Source: a virus
Taxonomy: Duplodnaviria; Heunggongvirae; Uroviricota; Caudoviricetes
Direction: 5' to 3' (one strand)
IMG/VR virus record: IMGVR_UViG_2671181040_000015
DNA: 13,956 nt
Shown here one piece after another: positions 1-13,669 of the stretch (position 1 is its first letter; each line of letters starts with the position of its first letter). Under the pieces are notes generated by a model. It was not told the DNA's origin. It worked only from the letters and a program-made list of their open reading frames with translations, and searched no databases. The translations under genes and the position numbers were made by a program.

Positions 1-570
1 ACAATGCTTAATGCGCTGGCAGGTAAACAACCGCTGGACAATACGCTTACCAATTTGAGTGGAAAGGATGTAGCTGGTCTTCTCGCATACCTTGGTTTGG
101 GAGAAGGCTCTGCATTGCCTGTTGGTGTGCCTGTTCCGTGGCCTTCAGCCACTCCGCCAACAGGCTGGCTGAAATGCAATGGTGCGGCTTTTTCTGCTGA
201 AGAATACCCGGAACTGGCAAAGGCTTACCCGACAAATAAATTGCCTGATTTACGCGGTGAATTTATTCGCGGCTGGGATGACGGGCGCGGGGTTGATGTT
301 GGGCGTGCAATCTTATCATCGCAGGGCGATGCCATCAGAAATATAATTGGCAAGTTTGGTAATACTCAATTGTACCCAAGTATCTATTGTGATGGTGCAT
401 TTGGCGTCACTGTTGAGAATGTGTCACAAACTTTAGGATTAACTCTTGCGCCTTCAGGGGCAGGTAATGGGACTGTAAACTTTAGCTTTGATGCATCTAA
501 AATCGTTCCTGTTGCCACTGAAAACCGGCCGCGCAACGTCGCATTTAACTTCATTGTGAGGGCTGCATAA
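1..570 (+). CDS. Tail-fibre protein, 3' portion (5' partial, continues upstream of the window); 1..105 is the end of the constant shaft (Sc), 106..570 the variable receptor-binding C-terminus (Sv1)
   Basis: The frame is open from base 1 (ORF track 4..570) with stop TAA at 568-570. The C-terminal domain (PVGVPVPWPSATPPTGWLKCNGAAF...RGEFIRGWDDGRGVD) resembles Mu S / P2 H / e14 Stf-type fibre tips. Crossover site A lies inside the coding sequence. Confidence 0.9.
   Translation, partial: TMLNALAGKQPLDNTLTNLSGKDVAGLLAYLGLGEGSALPVGVPVPWPSATPPTGWLKCNGAAFSAEEYPELAKAYPTNKLPDLRGEFIRGWDDGRGVDVGRAILSSQGDAIRNIIGKFGNTQLYPSIYCDGAFGVTVENVSQTLGLTLAPSGAGNGTVNFSFDASKIVPVATENRPRNVAFNFIVRAA
80..105 (+). other. 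Crossover site A (gix/hix/cix-like 26-bp invertase site): TTCTCGCATACC-TT-GGTTTGGGAGAA
   Basis: Two imperfect 12-bp inverted half-sites around a 2-bp TT core. The half-site form TTCTCnnAAACC resembles remembered hixL/gixL half-sites. Sequence identity with copies B and C ends exactly at the inner edge of the site (position 105/106). Confidence 0.75.
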
Positions 571-1172
571 TGGCACAGGCAAAATTAAACAGCGAACTGA
601 TTGCCACGGTAGCGGGTGATGTGACCGTGTTTAACTACGACAGCAAGACGCGGGAATATCTTTCCACATCAACTGAATATCTTGCTGTTGGCGTCGGTAT
701 CCCGGCATGTTCTTGTTTAGATGCACCAGGTATACATAAAGCTGGTTATGCAATCTGCCGTTCAGCAGATTTAAACTCATGGGAGTATGTGCCAGACCAT
801 CGCGGTGAAATCATCTATAACACCGAAACGGGAGACGCCAAAGAAATCACAACTCCGGGTGATTACCCTGAAAATACAACCACTATCGCCCCGTTAACGC
901 CATTCGATAAATGGGATGGTGAGAAATGGGTGACCGATACTGAGGCACAGCATTGCGCCGCAGTAGACGCGGCAGAAGCACAGCGTCAGTCACTGATTGA
1001 TACTGCAATGGCTTCCATCAGTCTGATTCAACTGAAATTGCAGGCCGGGCGGAAGCTGACGCAGGCAGAAACCACCCGACTTAACGCTGTGCTGGATTAC
1101 ATTGACGCGGTGACGGCAACAGATACCAGCACCGCGCCGGATGTCATCTGGCCTGAACTGCCGGAGGCGTAG
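570..1172 (+). CDS. Tail-fibre assembly chaperone Tfa1 (partner of Sv1)
   Basis: 200-aa ORF whose ATG overlaps the fibre stop (TAATG at 568-572). Its C-terminus (LDYIDAVTATDTSTAPDVIWPELPEA) shares the motif seen in the convergent Tfa2 (LDYLDALELVDTSGAPDIEWP), and it sits in the position of Mu U / P2 G. Confidence 0.85.
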   Translation: MAQAKLNSELIATVAGDVTVFNYDSKTREYLSTSTEYLAVGVGIPACSCLDAPGIHKAGYAICRSADLNSWEYVPDHRGEIIYNTETGDAKEITTPGDYPENTTTIAPLTPFDKWDGEKWVTDTEAQHCAAVDAAEAQRQSLIDTAMASISLIQLKLQAGRKLTQAETTRLNAVLDYIDAVTATDTSTAPDVIWPELPEA

Positions 1173-1584
1173 GCCATTCAATATCTGGCGCACCGGAAGT
1201 ATCGACCAGTTCCAGTGCGTCCAGGTAATCCAGCCACAAATTATATTGCGCCAGTTCGTCACCTTTCAGACGACCAATAGCCGCTTTACCAGGCCATTGT
1301 TTACTGTTCATATAATCGTTGGCCTGATTAATCAATTGCTGCTTCTCCAGTTCGGCTGCAGCAATTTGTTCCTCATGTGTTGGTGGTGGAATTTCGGACC
1401 ATGCAGGAAAACCATTTTCTCCAGCGATACGGATTTTTCCTTTCGGCGGTAATCCGGAAAACTCAATATACACTTGCTCATCAACTTCAACAGCATCATC
1501 TGGCCATGAGTCAGCTTGAGTGTAATCCTCTTTCATCTCCAGCGGATAGAAAGAGTTTGTAGTCGCGGAATATATGTAATTCAT
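1144..1584 (-). CDS. Alternative tail-fibre assembly chaperone Tfa2 (partner of Sv2)
   Basis: 146-aa ORF convergent with Tfa1, with 3' ends overlapping by 29 bp (1144-1172). It shares the Tfa-like C-terminal motif and lies 21 bp downstream of Sv2 on the minus strand, with a GGAG Shine-Dalgarno (rc of 1589-1594). Confidence 0.8.
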   Translation of the reverse strand: MNYIYSATTNSFYPLEMKEDYTQADSWPDDAVEVDEQVYIEFSGLPPKGKIRIAGENGFPAWSEIPPPTHEEQIAAAELEKQQLINQANDYMNSKQWPGKAAIGRLKGDELAQYNLWLDYLDALELVDTSGAPDIEWPTPPAVQAR

Positions 1585-1958
1585 TTTTCACTCCATATAG
1601 CTAAATTAACAGCCTAACGCTAAAAATGAAGCGCCGAGGCCAGGAGTACTGGCTCTGGATATAAATTTAACCGGGTCGGGACTAAAACCTGCACAGGCAA
1701 TATAACCAACAGCCCCGCTATCTGGTGTGTAGTCTTGTGAGACCAAAACACGCAGACATCTGTTTGGAAATGCAATCGGGAAATGGGTTACTACATCCTG
1801 TGCAATGCCTGGTGCGCCGATTGAGCCCCACTGAAGAATAAAACCTGATGGTAATTTTTGATATCCAGTACCTGAAACAGAAAGCGTGAAGCTACCCATA
1901 TCAGGTATCTGATTCGCCCCTGTCCCTACATTCCTTTTAGCCGCTTCTCCCAAACCAA
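1408..1958. repeat. Direct repeat copy 1 (551 bp): tfa2 5' end (59 codons), intergenic spacer, Sv2 cassette and inner half of site B
   Basis: Matches 2632..3182 at a constant offset of 1224 bp; spot checks and the identical encoded peptides show no mismatch. Identity ends at 1407/2631 and at 1959/3183. Confidence 0.9.
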
Positions 1959-2808
1959 GGTATGCGAGAAGACCAGCTACATCCTTTCCACTCAAATTGG
2001 TAAGCGTATTGTCCAGCGGTTGTTTACCTGCCAGCGCATTAAGCATTGTCGTGGCAAAGTTCGGATCATTCCCCAGTGCCGCCGCCAGTTCGTTCAGTGT
2101 ATCCAGTGCAGCAGGTGCAGAACCCACCATTCCTGCAATCGCCGATTTCACAAAAGCCGTAGTGGCAATCTGTGTATTGTTGACCGACTGCGCCGCCGTG
2201 GGGGCTGTTGGCGTTCCGGTGAGTGCCGGACTCGACAACGGTGCTTTTAGTGCCAGCGCATTGTTAATGGTGGTACTGAAATTCGGATCATTGTTAATGG
2301 CTGCGGCTATTTCTTTCAGCGTGTCCAGCGTGGCTGGCGCACCATTAATAAGGGCCGTCAGTGCCGCCTGTACAAACGCAGTGGTCGCAACCTGCGTGGT
2401 ATTATTCCCCGCCGCTGGCGTTGGCGCTTTGGGGGTTCCGGTAAATGTCGGGCTGGCTTTTGGCGCGTACTGTGAATGCGGGTCCGGTGCGGCAAGATGT
2501 TTTGCCATCTGATCATCCGCGTACACCTTCAGCTCCAGTGCCTTGTCATCCACATACTTGCGGGTTGCCAGCACTACAGCAGGGTCGATTTTCAGGGTGA
2601 TATTGTCCGTGCTGCTGGTAATCAGCACCAAAAAACCATTTTCTCCAGCGATACGGATTTTTCCTTTCGGCGGTAATCCGGAAAACTCAATATACACTTG
2701 CTCATCAACTTCAACAGCATCATCTGGCCATGAGTCAGCTTGAGTGTAATCCTCTTTCATCTCCAGCGGATAGAAAGAGTTTGTAGTCGCGGAATATATG
2801 TAATTCAT
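1606..2808 (-). CDS. Chimeric 400-aa ORF: Tfa2 N-terminus (59 aa, 2808..2632), inverted tail-fibre shaft segment (about 225 aa, 2631..1971), site B, and Sv2 receptor-binding tip (1944..1606)
   Basis: Continuous ORF in the track. The N-terminal 59 aa are identical to Tfa2. The middle carries fibre-shaft repeats ([10 protein letters not shown]...LDTL.E.AAA...NDPNF). The last 35 codons before site B are identical to window positions 1..105. The C-terminus AAKRNVGTG...LALGC is a distinct fibre tip. Whether it is expressed as such is uncertain. Confidence 0.55.
1945..1970 (-). other. Crossover site B (identical to site A, inverted orientation)
   Basis: The reverse complement of 1945..1970 is TTCTCGCATACC-TT-GGTTTGGGAGAA, with the core at 1957-1958. 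Confidence 0.75.
1945..2049 (-). repeat. Inverted repeat of window positions 1..105 (end of the tail-fibre constant region, including the crossover site); it probably extends further as 2050..2631 pairs with sequence upstream of the window
   Basis: The reverse complement of 1945..2049 equals 1..105 (position p pairs with 2050-p). The identity reaches the window edge, so its true length cannot be determined here. Confidence 0.9.
2034..2495 (-). repeat. Two in-frame tandem repeat units of 231 bp (77 codons) within the inverted fibre-shaft segment
   Basis: The motif GCGCATT..AAATTCGGATCATT recurs at 2034 and 2265. The encoded peptide units are [42 protein letters not shown] and [42 protein letters not shown]. 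Confidence 0.7.
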
Positions 2809-3182
2809 TTTTCACTCCATATAGCTAAATTAACAGCCTAACGCTAAAAATGAAGCGCCGAGGCCAGGAGTACTGGCTCTGGATATAAATTTAACCGGGT
2901 CGGGACTAAAACCTGCACAGGCAATATAACCAACAGCCCCGCTATCTGGTGTGTAGTCTTGTGAGACCAAAACACGCAGACATCTGTTTGGAAATGCAAT
3001 CGGGAAATGGGTTACTACATCCTGTGCAATGCCTGGTGCGCCGATTGAGCCCCACTGAAGAATAAAACCTGATGGTAATTTTTGATATCCAGTACCTGAA
3101 ACAGAAAGCGTGAAGCTACCCATATCAGGTATCTGATTCGCCCCTGTCCCTACATTCCTTTTAGCCGCTTCTCCCAAACCAA
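2632..3182. repeat. Direct repeat copy 2 (551 bp), a duplicate of 1408..1958
   Basis: Constant offset of 1224 bp from copy 1. Contains a second tfa2 start with RBS (ATG rc at 2806-2808) and a second Sv2 cassette ending at site C. Confidence 0.9.
2830..3168 (-). other. Duplicate Sv2 cassette (promoterless fibre-tip segment adjacent to site C); it would become the fibre C-terminus after inversion between sites A and C
   Basis: Encodes AAKRNVGTG...LALGC, identical to the tip encoded at 1944..1606, with stop (rc) at 2830-2832. The ATG of the 130-aa track ORF (3222) lies outside the repeat and is probably fortuitous. Confidence 0.7.
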
Positions 3183-3194
3183 CGTTTATGAAAA
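3169..3194 (-). other. Crossover site C: reverse complement TTTTCATAAACG-TT-GGTTTGGGAGAA
   Basis: The inner half-site and core are identical to A and B. The outer half-site differs (TTTTCATAAACG) but keeps the hix-like form. It lies 55 bp upstream of the invertase start, as gix/cix sites lie beside gin/cin. Confidence 0.7.
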
Positions 3195-3249
3195 TGCAGA
3201 GATAATGGCTAACTGGCATCATCCCCGGTTTTTATTCAGGGGATTGATC
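3195..3249 (+). promoter_or_regulatory. Candidate invertase promoter and RBS region abutting site C
   Basis: GATAAT (3201-3206) is a possible -10 and AGGGGA (3238-3243) a Shine-Dalgarno 6 nt before the ATG. No convincing -35 was found, so the promoter call is weak. Confidence 0.3.
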
Positions 3250-3816
3250 ATGCTTATTGGCTATGTACGCGTGTCAACAAATGACCAGAACACCGATTTG
3301 CAACGTAATGCACTGAACTGCGCGGGATGTGAGCGGATTTTTGAGGATAAAATCAGTGGCACTAAGTCCGACAGACCGGGGCTTAAAAAACTGCTCAGGA
3401 CACTATCGGCAGGAGACACTCTGGTTGTCTGGAAGCTGGACAGACTGGGGCGCAGTATGCGGCATCTTGTTACGCTGATAGAAGAGTTGCGCCAGCGTGG
3501 CGTGAATTTCCGAAGCCTGACTGACAGTATTGATACCAGTACCCCAATGGGCCGTTTCTTTTTTCATGTTATGGGTGCCCTGGCTGAAATGGAACGCGAA
3601 CTGATAGTTGAACGTACCAGGGCAGGGCTGGCTGCAGCTCGTGCCAAAGGCAGAGTAGGTGGACGCCGTCCTAAGTTGACCACCGAACAGTGGGCACAGA
3701 TTGGGCGTTTACTTGAGGCCGGAGAATCAAGACAGCGTATTGCACTGATTTTTGATGTAGGCGTTTCTACTATTTATAGAAAATTTCCGGCAAATAAGAG
3801 CAATGAATCTCCCTGA
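3250..3816 (+). CDS. Serine DNA invertase of the Hin/Gin/Cin/Pin family
   Basis: 188 aa from the ATG at 3250 (the track ORF starts earlier at 3205). N-terminus MLIGYVRVSTNDQNTDLQRNAL carries the catalytic serine motif of resolvase/invertase enzymes, with a C-terminal helix-turn-helix region (GESRQRIALIFDVGVSTIYRK). It lies immediately beside an invertible fibre segment. Confidence 0.9.
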   Translation: MLIGYVRVSTNDQNTDLQRNALNCAGCERIFEDKISGTKSDRPGLKKLLRTLSAGDTLVVWKLDRLGRSMRHLVTLIEELRQRGVNFRSLTDSIDTSTPMGRFFFHVMGALAEMERELIVERTRAGLAAARAKGRVGGRRPKLTTEQWAQIGRLLEAGESRQRIALIFDVGVSTIYRKFPANKSNESP

Positions 3817-3864
3817 ATCAGCATTATTTTGATTATCCCTGCAAGCAGACAAATACCGTCATTT

Positions 3865-3882
3865 TGTGTGAATAACGGTACA
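3865..3882 (+). promoter_or_regulatory. P2-type late promoter activator site (TGT-N12-ACA dyad) for the FI operon (PF-like)
   Basis: TGT (3865-3867), 12 nt, ACA (3880-3882), centred about 85 bp upstream of the FI ATG. This is the spacing expected for the Ogr-dependent dyad centred near -55 with a leader of about 30 nt. Confidence 0.55.
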
Positions 3883-3958
3883 ACTGCGCTTAGCTGTTTG
3901 TCAGGCACAATCACTTCAACATAGGGCGAAGCCTAATCCAATCAGGAGGTTCGCCACT

Positions 3959-5131
3959 ATGGCTCAGGATTACCACCACGGGGTGCGCGTTGTTGAAGTC
4001 AACGAAGGCACCCGATCCATTACCACGGTGAGCACCGCCATCGTGGGTATGATCTGCACGGGCGATGATGCCGATGCAAAAATGTTTCCTCTTAATAAAC
4101 CCGTGCTGATCACTGATGTGCTGACTGCCAGCGGTAAAGCGGGTGAGTCCGGTACTCTGGCCCGTTCGCTGGATGCCATCGCTGACCAGGCAAAACCCGT
4201 GACCGTTGTTGTGCGTGTGCCGCAGGGTGAAACGGAAGACGAAACCACGACCAATATCATCGGCGCTGTGACTGCTGAAGGTAAAAAAACAGGCATGAAA
4301 GCCCTGCTATCTGCCCAGTCACAGCTCGGCGTTAAACCGCGCATTCTCGGCGTGCCAGGTCACGATAACAAAGCCGTTGCGACTGAGTTGCTGAGCGTGG
4401 CGCAAAGCCTGCGTGGGTTTGCTTACCTGTCAGCGTATGGCTGCAAGACGGTACAGGAGGCGATCACTTACCGTGAAAACTTCAGCCAGCGCGAAGGAAT
4501 GCTGATCTGGCCCGACTTTACTGGCTGGGATACGGTGTTGAATGCCGAAGCAACGGCATATGCCACCGCCCGTGCGCTTGGTCTGCGCGCCAAAATTGAT
4601 GAGCAGACCGGGTGGCACAAAAGCCTGTCCAACGTGGGCGTGAACGGTGTCACCGGAATTTCTGCAGATGTGTTCTGGGATCTGCAGGACCCGGCAACCG
4701 ATGCGGGACTGCTTAACCAGAACGACGTCACCACGCTTATCCGCAAAGACGGTTTCCGCTTCTGGGGTTCCCGCTGCCTGAGTGATGACCCGCTCTTTGC
4801 CTTCGAAAACTACACCCGCACGGCGCAGGTACTGATGGACACGATGGCAGAAGCGCATATGTGGGCGGTGGACAAACCGCTGAACCCGTCGCTGGCCCGC
4901 GACATTATCGAAGGTATCCGCGCCAAAATGCGCAGCCTGGTCAGTCAGGGGTATCTCATTGGTGGTGATTGCTGGCTGGACGAGTCGGTGAACGACAAAG
5001 ACACGCTGAAAGCCGGAAAACTCACCATCGACTATGACTACACGCCAGTGCCGCCACTTGAAAATCTGATGCTGCGTCAGCGCATCACCGATCAGTACCT
5101 GGTGAATTTTGCCAGCCAGGTCAGCGCGTAA
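3959..5131 (+). CDS. FI: Contractile tail sheath protein (P2 FI homologue)
   Basis: 390 aa, AGGAGG Shine-Dalgarno at 3944-3949. The sequence ([31 protein letters not shown]...) is close to the remembered P2 FI sequence. Confidence 0.9.
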
Positions 5132-6013: not shown

Positions 6014-6147
6014 CGGTTGACGATCTGGTGGCAGATATCGCCACCATTTTTCACTGGCCGCCATCCGTTACTGACGTTATGCCGCTGACCGAAGTGCTGG
6101 AATGGCGGTATAAAGCGATTCAGAGAAGCGGGGCCAACGATGAGTGA
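5711..6147 (+). CDS. E+E' fusion product made by a programmed -1 ribosomal frameshift at 5968-5974
   Basis: The heptamer T_TTT_TTG is in the X_XXY_YYZ register of the E frame. The -1 frame stays open from 5974 to TGA at 6145-6147 and overlaps the T start at 6140, as in P2 E/E'. Confidence 0.65.
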
Positions 6148-9100
6148 TAATAACCTGCGCCTGCAGGTCATTCTTAATGCGGTTGACAAACTCACCCGCC
6201 CATTCCGTGCTGCACAGGCCAGTTCGAAAGAGCTGGCTGGCGCAATCAGAAACTCCCGTGACGCATTAAAGCAACTCAATCAGGCGGGTAACAGCCTGGA
6301 AAAATTTCGCAAGCTGCAGGCCGATAACAAGAAGTTAGGCGACAGGCTGAACTATGCCAGACAGAAGGCTAATTTGCTTAGCTCTGAGCTGGAGGCGATG
6401 GAACAACCATCACAACGGCACCTTGTGGCTTTAGGTCGGCAAACGCTGGCAGTCCAACGCCTGGAAGAACAACAAAAATATTTGCAGAAGCAAACGGCGC
6501 TTGTGCGTGCAGAACTGTACCGGGCGGGAATTTCTGCGAAAGATGATGCGGGAGCAACTGCCCGTTTAGCCCGTGAAACATCACGTTATAACCAGGAATT
6601 GTCGAAACAGGAGGCGCGCCTGAAGCGACTGGGGGAAGCTCAGCGCAGGATGAATGCGGCGCGTGCCAGTTATGCCCGTTCGCTGGAGGTGCGCGATCGT
6701 ATTGCAGGAGCCGGAGCCACCACCACGGCTGCAGGGCTGGCAATGGGTGCGCCAGTGATGGCGGCAGTAAAAAGCTATACCAGCATGGAAGATGCCATGA
6801 AAGGTGTGGCAAAGCAGGTCAATGGTCTGCGTGACGATAATGGCAACCGCACTGCACGTTTTTATGAAATGCAGGATGCCATCAAGGCTGCCAGCGAACA
6901 GTTGCCGATGGAAAACGGTGCGGTGGACTTCGCTGCACTGGTTGAAGGTGGGGCGCGCATGAACGTCGCAAACCCTGACGACAGCTGGGAAGACCAGAAA
7001 CGTGACCTGCTGGCCTTCGCCAGCACGGCAGCAAAGGCGGCAACAGCCTTTGAGTTGCCAGCGGATGAACTGTCAGAAAGTCTGGGGAAAATCGCCCAGC
7101 TCTACAAAATCCCTACCCGCAATATTGAACAGCTCGGCGATGCGCTGAACTATCTGGATGATAACGCCATGTCGAAAGGGGCAGACATCATTGATGTGAT
7201 GCAACGTCTGGGCGGTGTGGCTGACCGTCTGGATTATCGTAAAGCGGCGGCGCTGGGTTCCACCTTCCTGACACTGGGCGCTGCGCCAGAGGTTGCAGCC
7301 AGTGCAGCAAACGCGATGGTGCGTGAATTGTCCATTGCCACCATGCAAAGCAAGAGTTTCTTTGAAGGAATGAATCTGCTGAAACTCAATCCTGAGGTGA
7401 TTGAAAAGCAGATGACGAAGGATGCGATGGGAACCATCCAGCGCGTGCTGGAGAAGGTGAACGCACTGCCGCAGGATAAGCGCCTGTCTGCCATGACCAT
7501 GTTGTTTGGTAAAGAGTTTGGCGATGATGCGGCGAAACTGGCAAACAACTTGCCGGAACTGCAGCGCCAGCTAAAACTGACAGCGGGCAATGATGCGCTC
7601 GGTTCGATGCAGAAAGAATCCGACATTAACAAGGACTCACTTTCTGCGCAGTGGTTGCTGGTTAAAACCGGAGCGCAGAACACCTTCAGCAGCCTGGGCG
7701 AAACGCTGCGCCAGCCGCTGATGGATATTCTGTACACGGTGAAAAGCATCACGGGGGCGTTGCGCCGCTGGGTGGAAGCTAACCCGGAACTGACAGGCAC
7801 ACTGGTGAAAGTAGCGGCTGTTGTGGCTGCGGTTACCGTAGGCCTCGGCACCTTAGCGGTGGCGTTGGCTGCAGTGCTGGGGCCGCTGGCAGTGATCCGT
7901 CTGGGATTCTCTGTGCTGGGTATCAAAACGTTACCTTCCGTTACGGCAGCAGTAACACGAACCAGCAGCGCGTTGTCCTGGCTGGCGCACCACTTGCACT
8001 GCTGCGACGCGGGCTTGCTTCAACGGGCAGCGCAGCGGGTTTACTTACTGCGCCGTTGTCGTCTTTGCGCCGCACGGCATCACTGACGGGAAATGTCCTG
8101 AAAACTGTAGCAGGTGCGCCGGTTGCACTTTTGCGGTCTGGATTATCCGGTTTACGTGCTGTTGCTGTGATGTTTATGAATCCACTGGCAGCACTACGCG
8201 GCGGGCTGACTGCCGCAGGCGCGGTGCTACGAGTACTGGCATCCGGTCCGCTGGTGATGCTGCGCGTTGCCCTGTATGCCGTGTCTGGTCTGTTAGGTGC
8301 TCTGCTCAGTCCGATAGGTCTTGTGGTTACTGCACTGGCGGGTGTGGCGCTGGTTGTCTGGAAATACTGGCAACCCATCACCGCGTTTCTCGGTGGTGTG
8401 GTGGAGGGATTCAAAGCAGCGGCAGGTCCCGTCAGTGCCGCGTTCGAACCACTTAAGCCTGTGTTCCAGTGGATTGGCGATAAAGTGCAGGCGTTGTGGG
8501 GCTGGTTTACTGATCTGCTGACACCCGTTAAGTCGACTTCTGCCGAACTGCAGAGCGCAGCGGAAATGGGGCGACGATTCGGGGAGGCGTTGGCGGAAGG
8601 GCTGAATATGGTTATGCATCCGCTGGACTCCCTCAAATCCGGCGTATCCTGGTTGCTGGAGAAACTCGGCGTTGTCAGTAAAGAGGCCGCAAAGGCGAAA
8701 CTACCGGAAAGTGTGACGCGTCAGCAACCTGGGACGGTGAATACAGACGGTAAAGTGATGATGCCATCGGGTGGTTTTCCGTCATGGGGATATGGCTTTG
8801 CGGGGATGTATGACAGCGGCGGCTATATCCCGCGCGGGCAGTTTGGCATCGTCGGTGAAAACGGGCCGGAAATTGTTAACGGCCCGGCAAATGTGACCAG
8901 CCGGAGAAATACAGCTGCACTGGCTGCCGTTGTTGCCGGAATGATGGGCGTTGCTGCCGCGCCAGCAGAGCTTCCACCGTTGCACCCTTTGGCACTTCCC
9001 GCGAAAGGCGGCGAAGCGATGGTGAGTCGTGCAGCCACTGTGCCGCCCGTTCACCGGATTGAGGCACCGACGCAGATCATCATTCAGACGCAGCCAGGAC

Positions 9101-9213
9101 AAAGTGCGCAGGATATTGCGCGGGAGGTGGCACGCCAGCTTGATGAACGTGAACGCAGGCTGAAGGCAAAAGCCAGGAGTAACTACAGCGATCAGGGGGG
9201 ATACGACGCATGA
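6140..9213 (+). CDS. T: Tail tape measure protein (P2 T homologue), reading frame interrupted: the track shows two overlapping ORFs, 6140..8086 and 8056..9213, that need a -1 shift to join
   Basis: Both ORFs look like tape-measure sequence (coiled-coil and Ala/Leu-rich hydrophobic stretches). The last 30 residues of the first ORF and the first 50 residues of the second frame are low-complexity junk, which places the break roughly between 7950 and 8000. Confidence 0.75.
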
Positions 9214-10882: not shown

Positions 10883-11101
10883 ATGATGATTTGCCCACTG
10901 TGTGGAAGTGCCGCCCATACTCGCAGCAGTTTTCAGGTATCTTCATTGACCAAAGAGCGTTACAACCAGTGCCAGAACATTAACTGCAGCCATACTTTTG
11001 TTACCCATGAAACTTTTGTTCGTTCGATTGCAACGCCAAAAGAGTCAAATCCGGTTCAGCCGCATCCAATGAAATCAGGACAGGTGGCGCTCTCTCTTTG
11101 A
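10883..11101 (+). CDS. ogr: Ogr/Delta-type zinc-finger late transcription activator
   Basis: 72 aa from the ATG at 10883: MMICPLCGSAAHTRSS...CQNINCSHTF has the Cys-X2-Cys...Cys-X4-Cys zinc finger and the Ogr length. The longer track ORF starting at 10850 is not used. Confidence 0.9.
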   Translation: MMICPLCGSAAHTRSSFQVSSLTKERYNQCQNINCSHTFVTHETFVRSIATPKESNPVQPHPMKSGQVALSL

Positions 11102-11181
11102 CGCTGTCGCCATTTTGTCGCCATCGTTAAAAAACAGTGCTTCTAACATCATGATTTTAAACAGCATAAATTTCAGGCAAC

Positions 11182-11224
11182 AAAAAACCCATCAACCTTG
11201 AACCGAAATGGCGGGGTTGATGGG
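11182..11224 (-). terminator. Rho-independent terminator on the minus strand, downstream of ybjL
   Basis: Perfect 10-bp stem (11188-11197 and 11215-11224, CCCATCAACC / GGTTGATGGG) followed on the minus strand by a run of 6 T (complement of A at 11182-11187). Confidence 0.6.
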
Positions 11225-11336
11225 CTCCACAAAATGGGGACATCAAAGAAAAGCAGTGGCACTAATTAAGACTGATGCCCTGCGGAAAAGTTCTGCGGTT
11301 GTGCAAAAAAATTTCATTTTCAGGGCAACTTCAGTT

Positions 11337-13022
11337 TTATCCTAATCCAGGCCATACCATGACGATGATTGTCCCTGCCAGCGTCAGCAGGACGTTGGCG
11401 ATTGCGTAGGTGCCCGCATAGCCCAGCGCAGGGATGTTACTGCGAGCTGTATCACTGATGATCTCCATTGCCGGCGCGCAGGTGCGTGCGCCCATCATTG
11501 CGCCGAACAACAGTGCGCGGTTCATTCGCAATACATAAGCACCGAACAAGAAACAGATAACCACGGGCACAAGACTGACAATTAATCCGGCAATCAACAT
11601 CTGACCGCCAATCGCGCCCAGGCCGTTATTAATACCGCTACCGGCGCTCAGACCAACGCCTGCCATAAACACCATCAAGCCGAACTCTTTCACCATGCTT
11701 AATGCACCTTGCGGAATGTAACCGAAGGTCGGGTGGTTAGCACGCATAAAGCCCAGCATAATTCCGGCGAATAACAACCCGGCAGCGTTCCCCATGCCGA
11801 AACTGAATGTGCTGAACTGGAAGGTGATCATCCCGATCATCAGCCCAATAACAAAGAAGGCGCAAAATGCCAGCAGGTCAGTGACCTGGCTGTGAATCGA
11901 GATAAAGCCGATGCGATCGGCGATGGTTTTTACGCGACGGGCATCACCGCTGACTTGTAAAACGTCACCTTTGTTAAGCACGACGTTGTCATCTATCGGC
12001 ATCTCAATCTGGCTACGAATGACGCGGTTAAGGAAGCAACCGTGATCGGTCAACTTCAGTTGTGCGAGACGTTTACCTACAGCGTTATGGTTTTTAACGA
12101 CCACTTCTTCAGTGACGATACGCATGTCGAGAAGGTCACGATCGAAAACTTCTTTACCGTTACGGAAGCTGGGATCGAGTCGGGCATGGGCGTCGGGATA
12201 GCCTACCAACGCTATTTCATCGCCCATTTGTAGCACGGCATCACCGTCTGGATTTGCAAGAATCCCGTTACGTCGAATACGTTCAATGTAGCAGCCGGTT
12301 TGTCGATAAATACCCAGTTCACGCAGATTTTTGCCGTCGGTCCAGGCCACGAGCTCCGGGCCGACGCGATAGGCGCGGATCACCGGTAAATAAACCTTAC
12401 GGTTGGCATCAGTGTCCAGGCCACGTTCGCGGGCGATTTGCTGGGCGCTGGTCTGTAAGTCCTGATGCTGCAATTTCGGCAAGTAACGCGCACCAACAAT
12501 CAAACTCACCAGACCGATTAAATAGGTTAAGGCATACCCGAGGCTCAGATTATCCAGTGCCAGTGAGAGCTGCCTGCTTTCCATGCCGGAATGACGCAGT
12601 GTATCGCCAGCACCGACCAGAACCGGTGTCGACGTCATAGAGCCTGCTAACATACCGGCCGTCAGGCCAATATCCCAGCCAAACAGCTTACCTAACCCTA
12701 AGGCGATCACCAGCGCACTGCCAACCATCACCAGTGCTAACATTAGGTAATTTTTCCCATCGCGAAAAAAAATGGAAAAAAAGTTCGGTCCGGCTTCGAC
12801 CCCGACGCAGAAAATAAACAGCATAAAGCCAAGATTAAGCGCATCGGTGTTAATGCTGAAATGTTGTTGGCCTAATAACAGCGATACGACTAAAACGCCA
12901 ATGGAATTACCCAGTTGGATCGAACCAAGTCGTAACTTTCCGAGACATAGCCCAAGCGCGAGGACCACAAATAATAACAGAATGTAATTCCCATTTAACA
13001 ATTCGGCGACGTTTATATTCAC
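11337..13022 (-). CDS. ybjL: Putative transporter YbjL (YidE/YbjL family, membrane domains plus RCK_C-type regulatory domains)
   Basis: 561 aa, N-terminus [39 protein letters not shown] start; followed by ybjM and grxA as in the E. coli chromosome. Confidence 0.9.
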
Positions 13023-13291: not shown

Positions 13292-13669
13292 GTGAAACAT
13301 AAACAACGTTGGGCGGGGGCAATCTGCTGTTTTGTCCTCTTCATTGTGGTGTGCCTTTTTCTGGCGACGCACATGAAAGGCGCTTTTCGGGCTGCCGGGC
13401 ATCCTGAAATCGGCTTGCTATTTTTCATTCTTCCTGGAGCAGTCGCCAGCTTCTTTTCACAGCGTAGAGAAGTCCTGAAACCTCTGTTTGGCGCAATGCT
13501 GGCGGCACCCTGTTCGATGCTCATTATGCGGCTGTTTTTTTCACCGACGCGCTCATTCTGGCAAGAGCTGGCATGGTTACTAAGCGCGGTGTTCTGGTGT
13601 GCGCTGGGGGCACTGTGTTTCTTATTTATCAGTAGTTTGTTTAAACCACAGCACAGAAAAAATCAGTAA
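13292..13669 (+). CDS. ybjM: Inner membrane protein YbjM
   Basis: 125-aa hydrophobic ORF, GTG start with AGGAGG Shine-Dalgarno (13281-13286), divergent from ybjL and convergent with grxA. Confidence 0.8.
   Translation: MKHKQRWAGAICCFVLFIVVCLFLATHMKGAFRAAGHPEIGLLFFILPGAVASFFSQRREVLKPLFGAMLAAPCSMLIMRLFFSPTRSFWQELAWLLSAVFWCALGALCFLFISSLFKPQHRKNQ

Follow-up and report, generated by a model that had tools for sequence, protein, structure and literature searches.

A common type of invertase-driven tail-fibre switch in the Z/fun slot of a P2-family prophage, lengthened by an assembly artefact

A DNA invertase and two sets of tail-fibre tip and chaperone genes lie upstream of the sheath gene FI in the viral record IMGVR_UViG_2671181040_000015 (IMG/VR), and they raise the question of whether a P2-type tail operon recently gained a host-range switch at this place. 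The whole stretch of DNA that was analysed (13,956 nucleotides, hereafter the window) is the start of the draft contig CYFW01000004.1 and begins at contig position 2. We put at roughly 80% the probability of the reading developed here, in which the locus is a host-range switch of a common and already described kind, exchanged and lost as a unit and representing the prevailing state of its lineage, whereas 1,224 bp of it are an assembly artefact.

The window opens inside the tail-fibre gene H, which is truncated there because the source contig begins within it; window position 1 corresponds to position 12001 of the prophage locus of Escherichia coli SL124 (L001), within H (11044-12570). The remaining C-terminal end of H, an ORF at 4-570 on the plus strand, comprises the last stretch of the constant part (4-105) and the expressed fibre tip Sv, which carries a phage tail Collar domain (106-570; PF07484, E = 8e-16). 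It is followed on the same strand by tfa1, the fibre-assembly chaperone gene paired with Sv (570-1172; Caudo_TAP, PF02413, E = 9e-32), and on the minus strand by tfa2, the chaperone gene paired with the alternative tip (1144-1584; PF02413, E = 1.5e-37), and by the silent alternative tip Sv' itself (1606-1944; gp53-like_C domain). An invertase gene at 3250-3816 and FI at 3959-5131, the right border of the slot, both on the plus strand, complete an order of genes that agrees with the preliminary description. BLASTP queries with tfa1 and tfa2 gave a weak, C-terminal similarity to P2 G for tfa1 only, and the equivalence of the tfa genes with G is therefore based on position and Pfam family.

The invertase (188 aa) is a serine enzyme of the Gin/Pin/Fin type, with an N-terminal catalytic Resolvase domain (PF00239, E = 3e-53) and a C-terminal helix-turn-helix domain (HTH_7, PF02796). 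It aligns with Mu Gin (3UJ3) over residues 1-184 with E = 8e-93, and the catalytic serine, Ser9, is present in the motif YVRVSTNDQ. The start given earlier, at 3205, is an in-frame ATG further upstream, and the relatives begin with MLIGYVRVST, which corresponds to position 3250.

Downstream of H and its chaperone, the order FI, FII, E/E', T, U, D, ogr is that of the late region of Peduoviridae (the P2 family). The prophage, integrated beside ybjL, is a member of this family resembling Wadgaonvirus and Elveevirus, the nearest named genera, and its FI shares about 68-70% identity with that of P2. Between the invertase and FI (3817-3958, plus strand) a TGT-N12-ACA dyad at 3865-3882 is a candidate Ogr-activated, pF-like late promoter. 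This region is 94-100% conserved in close relatives, including some without invertase. A scan of positions 1-4200 for sigma-70 promoters and terminators returned hits no more numerous than in shuffled sequences and was for this reason not used.

Between G and FI, P2 (NC_001895) has the terminator of the V operon, fun(Z) encoded on the other strand and the activator site of pF, so that the equivalence of the present locus with the P2 Z/fun slot, as first proposed, holds by position. In both cases the slot follows the fibre-assembly gene and precedes the pF promoter and FI. Its cargo is variable, as had also been proposed: among the close relatives it is the invertase module, an Acyl_transf_3 gene, a DNA methylase (N6_N4) or nothing. 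The invertase has been reported as a frequent cargo of the Z/fun hotspot, with neighbouring genes inverted (bioRxiv 10.1101/2024.10.15.618418). P2 itself carries the oppositely oriented fun(Z) and lacks a crossover site in H; the present switch, by contrast, extends leftwards into H.

Two 26-bp crossover sites in inverted orientation, each with a 2-bp core, delimit this switch. The left site, L, lies inside H at 80-105 (TTCTCGCATACC TT GGTTTGGGAGAA), and the right site, R, inverted relative to L, at 3169-3194 (TTCTCCCAAACC AA CGTTTATGAAAA), 790 bp upstream of FI in at least 26 relatives. The invertase would recombine L, in H, with R, just upstream of its own gene, and thereby flip a segment of about 1.85 kb in which two sets of tip and chaperone genes, Sv/tfa1 and Sv'/tfa2, are arranged head to head. 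The set that faces the constant part of H is predicted to form an in-frame fusion with it and to be expressed as part of the late operon, while the other stays silent. Fusions of H with both tips are in frame across site L (...LAYLGLGE|GSALP... and ...LAYLGLGE|AAKRN...) and either tip precedes its own Caudo_TAP gene, such that an inversion would swap the fibre C-terminus and its chaperone together. The left border had initially been placed at tfa1, which turns out to be inside the invertible segment. Among invertase-bearing relatives the tfa1-type gene is on the plus strand in 7 and on the minus strand in 8. A simple motif scan of the 5' portion of the invertase gene found degenerate Fis motifs, with no convincing pair at the expected 48-bp spacing; the switch may depend on Fis and an enhancer, and it would be expected to affect host range.

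The window is collinear with the SL124 prophage (99.8% identical, with the same gene order) except for a surplus of 1,224 bp at 1959-3182, equivalently 1408-2631, which is missing from that prophage and from every other relative. The two halves of this surplus have distinct origins. Positions 1971-2630 (minus strand) are a reversed constant part of H, which represents a contig end on the flipped-state path and no second copy of the gene here; together with the adjoining site M (1945-1970), the exact reverse complement of L, they belong to a piece (1944-2630) that is the reverse complement of L001 11420-12106 at 99.85% identity. M belongs to a 106-nt perfect inverted repeat and marks the H/Sv' junction of the flipped orientation; in the true genome Sv' adjoins R. 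Positions 2632-3182 (minus strand), which are the start of the next contig, repeat 1408-1958 (the N-terminus of tfa2 and Sv') over 551 bp at 100% identity. Between them, base 2631 is a scaffold gap: N in CYFW01000004.1 and A in the window, it is the one base at which window and source record disagree, and it falls exactly where collinearity breaks. The 1,224 bp are thus an assembly artefact, two overlapping contigs joined across an N. Positions 1-2630 and those from 2632 onward are separate assembly pieces with 551 bp in common; the first leaves the segment along the flipped path and enters reversed H, and the second follows the unflipped path to the invertase. The source assembly GCA_001283465.1 contains both junction types, H|Sv and H|Sv', and to judge from this assembly the artefact most likely arose because the sequenced culture held both orientations. 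The true module is accordingly 1,224 bp shorter, as in SL124 and phage 500465-1. From the tfa1 stop to the invertase stop, a distance first estimated at about 3.2 kb, the window measures 2,644 bp and the real genome 1,420 bp; the larger figure counts from the tfa1 start.

In principle, a real joint could lie hidden beneath the single N. If the H|Sv'|tfa2-N junction had been tandemly duplicated in the flipped state and an ordinary flip between the outermost sites had followed, a three-site system would result; carrying out both events in silico on the canonical sequence yields the window exactly, to the last base. Three-site P2-like switches exist elsewhere, and one relative (L070) has three candidate sites. 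However, the sole novel joint that such a duplication requires is the N of the source record and was therefore never sequenced, which makes the duplication unnecessary, and the two 551-bp copies are 100% identical. The branch point in H, moreover, is 107 nt from the contig start, which we read as a break typical of assemblers at repeats and branch points. The joint was not found in 5,426 complete E. coli genomes, nor in the genome, viral and metagenome contig collections (the last two searched with a variable gap), and an exact look-up of the 400-aa chimeric ORF combining tfa2, H and tip gave no match. We consider a real duplication very unlikely. Microhomology at the joint (the 7-nt ACCATGC near both ends) had been considered as well and was dropped because the source record has an N at the joint.

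The two junction types could also stem from two related P2-like prophages of one genome, fixed in opposite orientations, with no switching in the culture. Several matching places are often found in E. coli genomes (median 2 per genome), and the breaks at H 11420 and tfa2 13408 may point to further repeat boundaries in the genome. Conversely, identity to the partner sequence is 100% both for the reversed H piece and for the 551-bp overlap, a private SNP at position 85 recurring at 1965, and switching of P2-like prophages has been documented in ordinary culture. Two prophages are thus quite an unlikely source of the junctions, and a single switch present in both orientations is the reading retained below.

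Without its surplus, the locus has close counterparts. Escherichia phage 500465-1 (Wadgaonvirus, NC_049342) displays in gp31-gp36 the identical order H, tfa, tfa (reverse), tip (reverse), invertase and sheath, with nucleotide identities to the window of 97.5% for the invertase and 96.5% for FI, but its alternative tip differs. Neither this phage nor the SL124 prophage has the 1,224-bp insert, and both have an intact tape-measure gene. In Fels-2 of Salmonella LT2 the invertase STM2702 is directly upstream of FI and adjoins reversed H-like and G-like genes; its identity to the window is 74% for the invertase and 83.5% for FI, the alternative H fragment is longer (359 aa), and a 14-mer search for the crossover sites found no match there. 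STM2702 is named Fin in PMC12529663, which cites Fin as reported to act as a DNA invertase. Peduovirus magyaro and Cartapus are annotated with the same layout. The layout is therefore already annotated in four phages (Fels-2, 500465-1, Cartapus and Peduovirus magyaro) and published as a frequent Z/fun cargo.

Outside this family, the assignment of the module to the Mu/e14 type is confirmed by the match to Mu Gin and by the 16-nt inner arm TTGGTTTGGGAGAAGG, identical to the inverted repeat of the e14 P segment (PMC12529663), on which PinE acts and, in trans, PinQ and PinR. The P segment, of about 1.8 kb, has two tips and two Tfa chaperones (PMC12529663), and a tfaE-type annotation is found among the matches to the window region. 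However, e14 is a lambdoid remnant, whereas the present module lies between H and FI within the late region of a P2-type phage. The G segment of Mu with Gin and the C segment of P1 with Cin share the logic of a constant fibre part combined with alternative tips and chaperones, but their tips are unrelated in family to the Collar and gp53-like_C tips of the window. Inversion has been demonstrated in P2-like prophages of EPEC; the prophage of EPEC E2348/69 shares invertase-driven fibre switching, shown there by paired-read patterns, but its shufflon has three real repeats and three tips, whereas the third site of the window is a by-product of assembly.

The preliminary description went further and proposed that the module had been acquired by the tail operon. 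Several observations agree with a recent acquisition as a unit, into the Z/fun slot, by this lineage. The GC3 of tips, chaperones and invertase is 0.35-0.49, lower than that of the late genes FI through D (0.57-0.65), the constant part of H being at 0.59. Of the 40 close relatives with FI at least 94% identical, ten have no invertase, some of them carrying other cargo. Across genera, Peduovirus magyaro is closer to the window in the module than in FI (nucleotide identity 79.6% for the invertase, 90% for tfa1 and 86% for the constant part of H, but only 70% for FI); the uniform presence with congruent phylogeny that had been named as the mark of an ancestral module was thus not found. Low GC3, however, does not date the event, and it is expected for fibre tips, which are exchanged often. 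In 28 of the 40 close relatives the invertase lies at exactly the same place relative to FI (-709 to -146), and its identity in them (93.7-99.1%) tracks that of FI (95.3-98.1%); in the SL124 prophage the two values are 100% and 99.9%. The module is also found at this place in Fels-2 and in relatives whose FI is 81-87% identical, the identity of their invertases being 70-75%. Moreover, three invertase-less relatives bear deletion scars instead of empty sites: two (L026 and L037) retain the 3' end of the invertase gene, and in the third (L019) the outer half of the right site is kept, fused to the pF region. Common position, parallel divergence, the placement in Fels-2 and these scars indicate a polarity of loss as much as of gain. 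What stands of the proposal is the modular behaviour, with polymorphic presence, low GC3 and a similarity across genera exceeding that of FI; recent acquisition is unlikely. P2-family phages exchange and lose the module as one block, and in this lineage its presence is the prevailing state and no recent gain.

The tape-measure gene of the prophage carries a 4-bp deletion causing a frameshift, and for this reason the phage is probably unable to build tails. If tail building is lost, the switch may now have no phage-level function. As both orientations nevertheless occur in the assembly, it may be retained for the host, for instance through alternative fibre proteins blocking the adsorption of other phages; the fibre protein StfE2 of e14 has been reported, with PinQ, to block such adsorption. 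We give only a slim chance to the switch being kept for such a benefit or to the N hiding a real third-site duplication.

The locus itself carries little biological weight, its layout being annotated in reference phages and the presence of an invertase in the Z/fun hotspot being published. It calls for caution with invertible loci in draft genomes, which may yield duplicated and chimeric ORFs when contigs of both orientations are scaffolded, as with the fusion of tfa2, H and tip found here. A placeholder N turned into a base conceals the joint, and module sizes, ORFs and repeats read from such a stretch would be wrong. Indirectly, the artefact itself speaks for flipping of the switch in the culture that was sequenced.

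The window takes in the right-hand late region of a prophage of the P2 family and runs on into the E. coli chromosome (ybjL, ybjM and grxA). It opens in the end of the tail-fibre gene H with its Collar-domain tip Sv (4-570, + strand), followed by the fibre-assembly chaperone genes tfa1 (570-1172, +) and tfa2 (1144-1584, -), a gp53-like alternative tip, Sv' (1606-1944, -), a serine invertase (3250-3816, +), the tail sheath gene FI (3959-5131, +) and, 3' of FI and also on the + strand, FII, E, T, U, D and ogr. FI is 98-99% identical to that of Escherichia phage 500465-1 (Wadgaonvirus) and of several Klebsiella prophages, whereas it shares only about 68% identity with the P2-type FI. The gene order given in the preliminary description is real, and its observation is partly confirmed: the distance from the tfa1 stop to the invertase stop is 2,644 bp as written instead of 3.2 kb, and tfa1 had been placed outside the cassette. 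Since the left crossover site lies inside H, at 80-105, Sv, tfa1, tfa2 and Sv' are all within the invertible segment.

Downstream, the tape-measure gene T (6140-9213) is split into a 648-aa ORF and a second ORF starting at 8056 by the loss of 4 bp from a CTGG repeat (7971-7978), present in two copies in the window versus three perfect copies in 28 relatives and one perfect copy in 8 others. The two-copy state is absent from every other locus compared, and the prophage is probably tail-defective. Its end (region 10883-11336) comprises an ogr/delta-type zinc-finger gene and, between this gene and ybjL, a low-GC (0.42) stretch, the presumed location of the attachment-site junction. In E. coli SL124 the prophage occupies the identical chromosomal place.

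In P2, the terminator of the V operon comes after G, then the oppositely oriented fun(Z) gene and, ahead of FI, the pF activator site. According to this gene order, the invertase, the silent tip and the silent chaperone fill the Z/fun interval by position, as had been proposed. This layout is already annotated in RefSeq phages; in P2-like phages the Z/fun hotspot often harbours a DNA invertase gene, with adjacent genes being inverted and fibre and chaperone genes swapped (2024 preprint, bioRxiv 10.1101/2024.10.15.618418), and a 2014 study of EPEC measured the inversion in P2-like prophages. An invertase switch in the Z/fun slot of P2-like phages is therefore already known.

The invertase shows close homology to Mu Gin (E = 8e-93, residues 1-184) and carries the catalytic serine motif. 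The crossover sites L (80-105; TTCTCGCATACC TT GGTTTGGGAGAA) and R (3169-3194; TTCTCCCAAACC AA CGTTTATGAAAA) are in inverted relative orientation and have the inner arm TTGGTTTGGGAGAAGG in common, copies of which lie at 92-107, 1944-1958 and 3168-3182 in the window. Fusions of H to Sv and to Sv' are both in frame, and among invertase-bearing relatives the tfa1-type gene is oriented toward FI in 7 and away from it in 8. The invertase would be expected to depend on a Fis enhancer, TGT-N12-ACA at 3865-3882 is a candidate late promoter, and the switch would affect host range. In two loci, L023 (site at 3903) and L084 (NC_041848, 5441), the right site repeats the left one exactly, giving a 26-31 bp perfect inverted repeat instead of the usual divergent outer half. 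L070, a short viral contig of a related phage, displays three candidate sites 5' of the invertase (99, 1444 and 2156; one in - and two in + orientation) and may represent a genuine multi-segment switch.

The nearest relative, the SL124 prophage, is 99.8% identical to the window and shorter by exactly 1,224 bp. Window positions 1-1958 correspond to 12001-13958 of the SL124 locus, 1944-2630 are the reverse complement of 11420-12106, which reads as H in reverse, as expected after a flip, and from 2632 on collinearity restarts at 13408. The window contains a perfect 106-nt inverted repeat (1-106 versus 1944-2049) and a perfect direct repeat of 551 bp (1408-1958 versus 2632-3182), reported by the repeat analysis alone as 1408-1707 versus 2632-2931 and revealed in full by the SL124 comparison. 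A 400-aa ORF on the minus strand (1606-2808) combines the alternative tip with 59 residues from tfa2 and 229 from the constant part of H; a protein look-up found no exact match to its product elsewhere. In a model in which a tandem duplication arises in the flipped state and an ordinary inversion follows, every base of the window is recovered in silico. However, the window corresponds to positions 2-13957 of draft contig CYFW01000004.1 (GCA_001283465.1; locus L087, 1-18087), and the sole difference between them is position 2631, which is A in the window and N in the record. The joint was thus never sequenced, and this model was dropped; moreover, the joint matched nothing else in 5,426 complete E. 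coli genomes or in genome, viral and metagenome contig collections, making a real duplication concealed by the N very improbable. The stretch 1-2630 and the sequence from 2632 on represent separate assembly pieces with 551 identical bases in common, which diverge at the crossover site. The first runs on into reversed H (flipped state) and the second into the invertase (unflipped state), a scaffolder having strung both in series. The source contig also begins 107 nt ahead of the point where H-to-Sv and H-to-Sv' diverge, which we interpret as an assembler break at a branch point. The simplest cause of the two pieces would be a culture holding both orientations, a situation experimentally shown for P2-like prophages of EPEC; two prophage copies in one genome would also supply both junction types, an unlikely origin, if slightly less so than a concealed duplication. 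The true locus has the canonical form, with 1958 abutting 3183, and the main new information is that the 1,224 bp, including the chimeric ORF and the third site (1945-1970), arose as a by-product when a locus that was probably switching actively was scaffolded.

The region 5' of FI was typed in 80 viral contigs encoding an FI at least 90% identical. Where FI was at least 94% identical in nucleotides, 28 of the 40 informative loci have an FI-adjacent invertase at exactly -709 to -146, two (L026 and L037) just a 3'-terminal remnant of the gene, and 10 none; invertase identity (93.7-99.1%) parallels that of FI (95.3-98.1%). Among the 33 informative loci with FI 81-87% identical, a range including Fels-2, whose invertase gene likewise lies directly 5' of FI, the invertase adjoins FI in 3 and lies elsewhere in the interval in 2 (70-75% identical where present), while BLASTN, at such divergence, detected none in 28. 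In L019, which lacks the invertase, the outer half of site R is joined to the pF region (6844-6880), through a clean deletion of the gene, and L026 (6802-6858) and L037 (6751-6858) retain its last 57-108 nt; these remnants are scars of invertase loss. The slot of relatives without invertase contains an Acyl_transf_3 gene or nothing. Six of these loci (L014, L026, L039, L040, L053 and L064) encode a 355-403 aa membrane protein on either strand, 1-2 kb 5' of FI, probably a surface-modifying conversion gene; the four scanned (L014, L026, L039 and L053) match Acyl_transf_3. L080 carries an N6/N4 DNA methylase between invertase and FI, at -626 to -81 from FI.

Compared with Peduovirus magyaro, tfa1 is 90%, the H constant part 86% and the invertase 79.6% identical, FI and the J-H region only 70%, so the cross-genus signal is incongruent. 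GC3 is 0.35-0.49 in the tips, chaperones and invertase versus 0.57-0.65 in the late genes. Together with the distribution, the parallel identities and the deletion scars, these data argue that the block of fibre and invertase genes is a mobile family module, often exchanged and often lost, and that it is the normal state of this prophage's clade. The proposed modular acquisition is thus partly supported, by the incongruence and low GC3; the 80 FI-matched contigs gave no sign of a recent gain by this prophage. Finally, the inner arm exactly matches the inverted repeat described in the e14 P segment (PMC12529663), and the host invertases PinE, PinQ and PinR might therefore flip the segment in trans, even in relatives without an invertase of their own.
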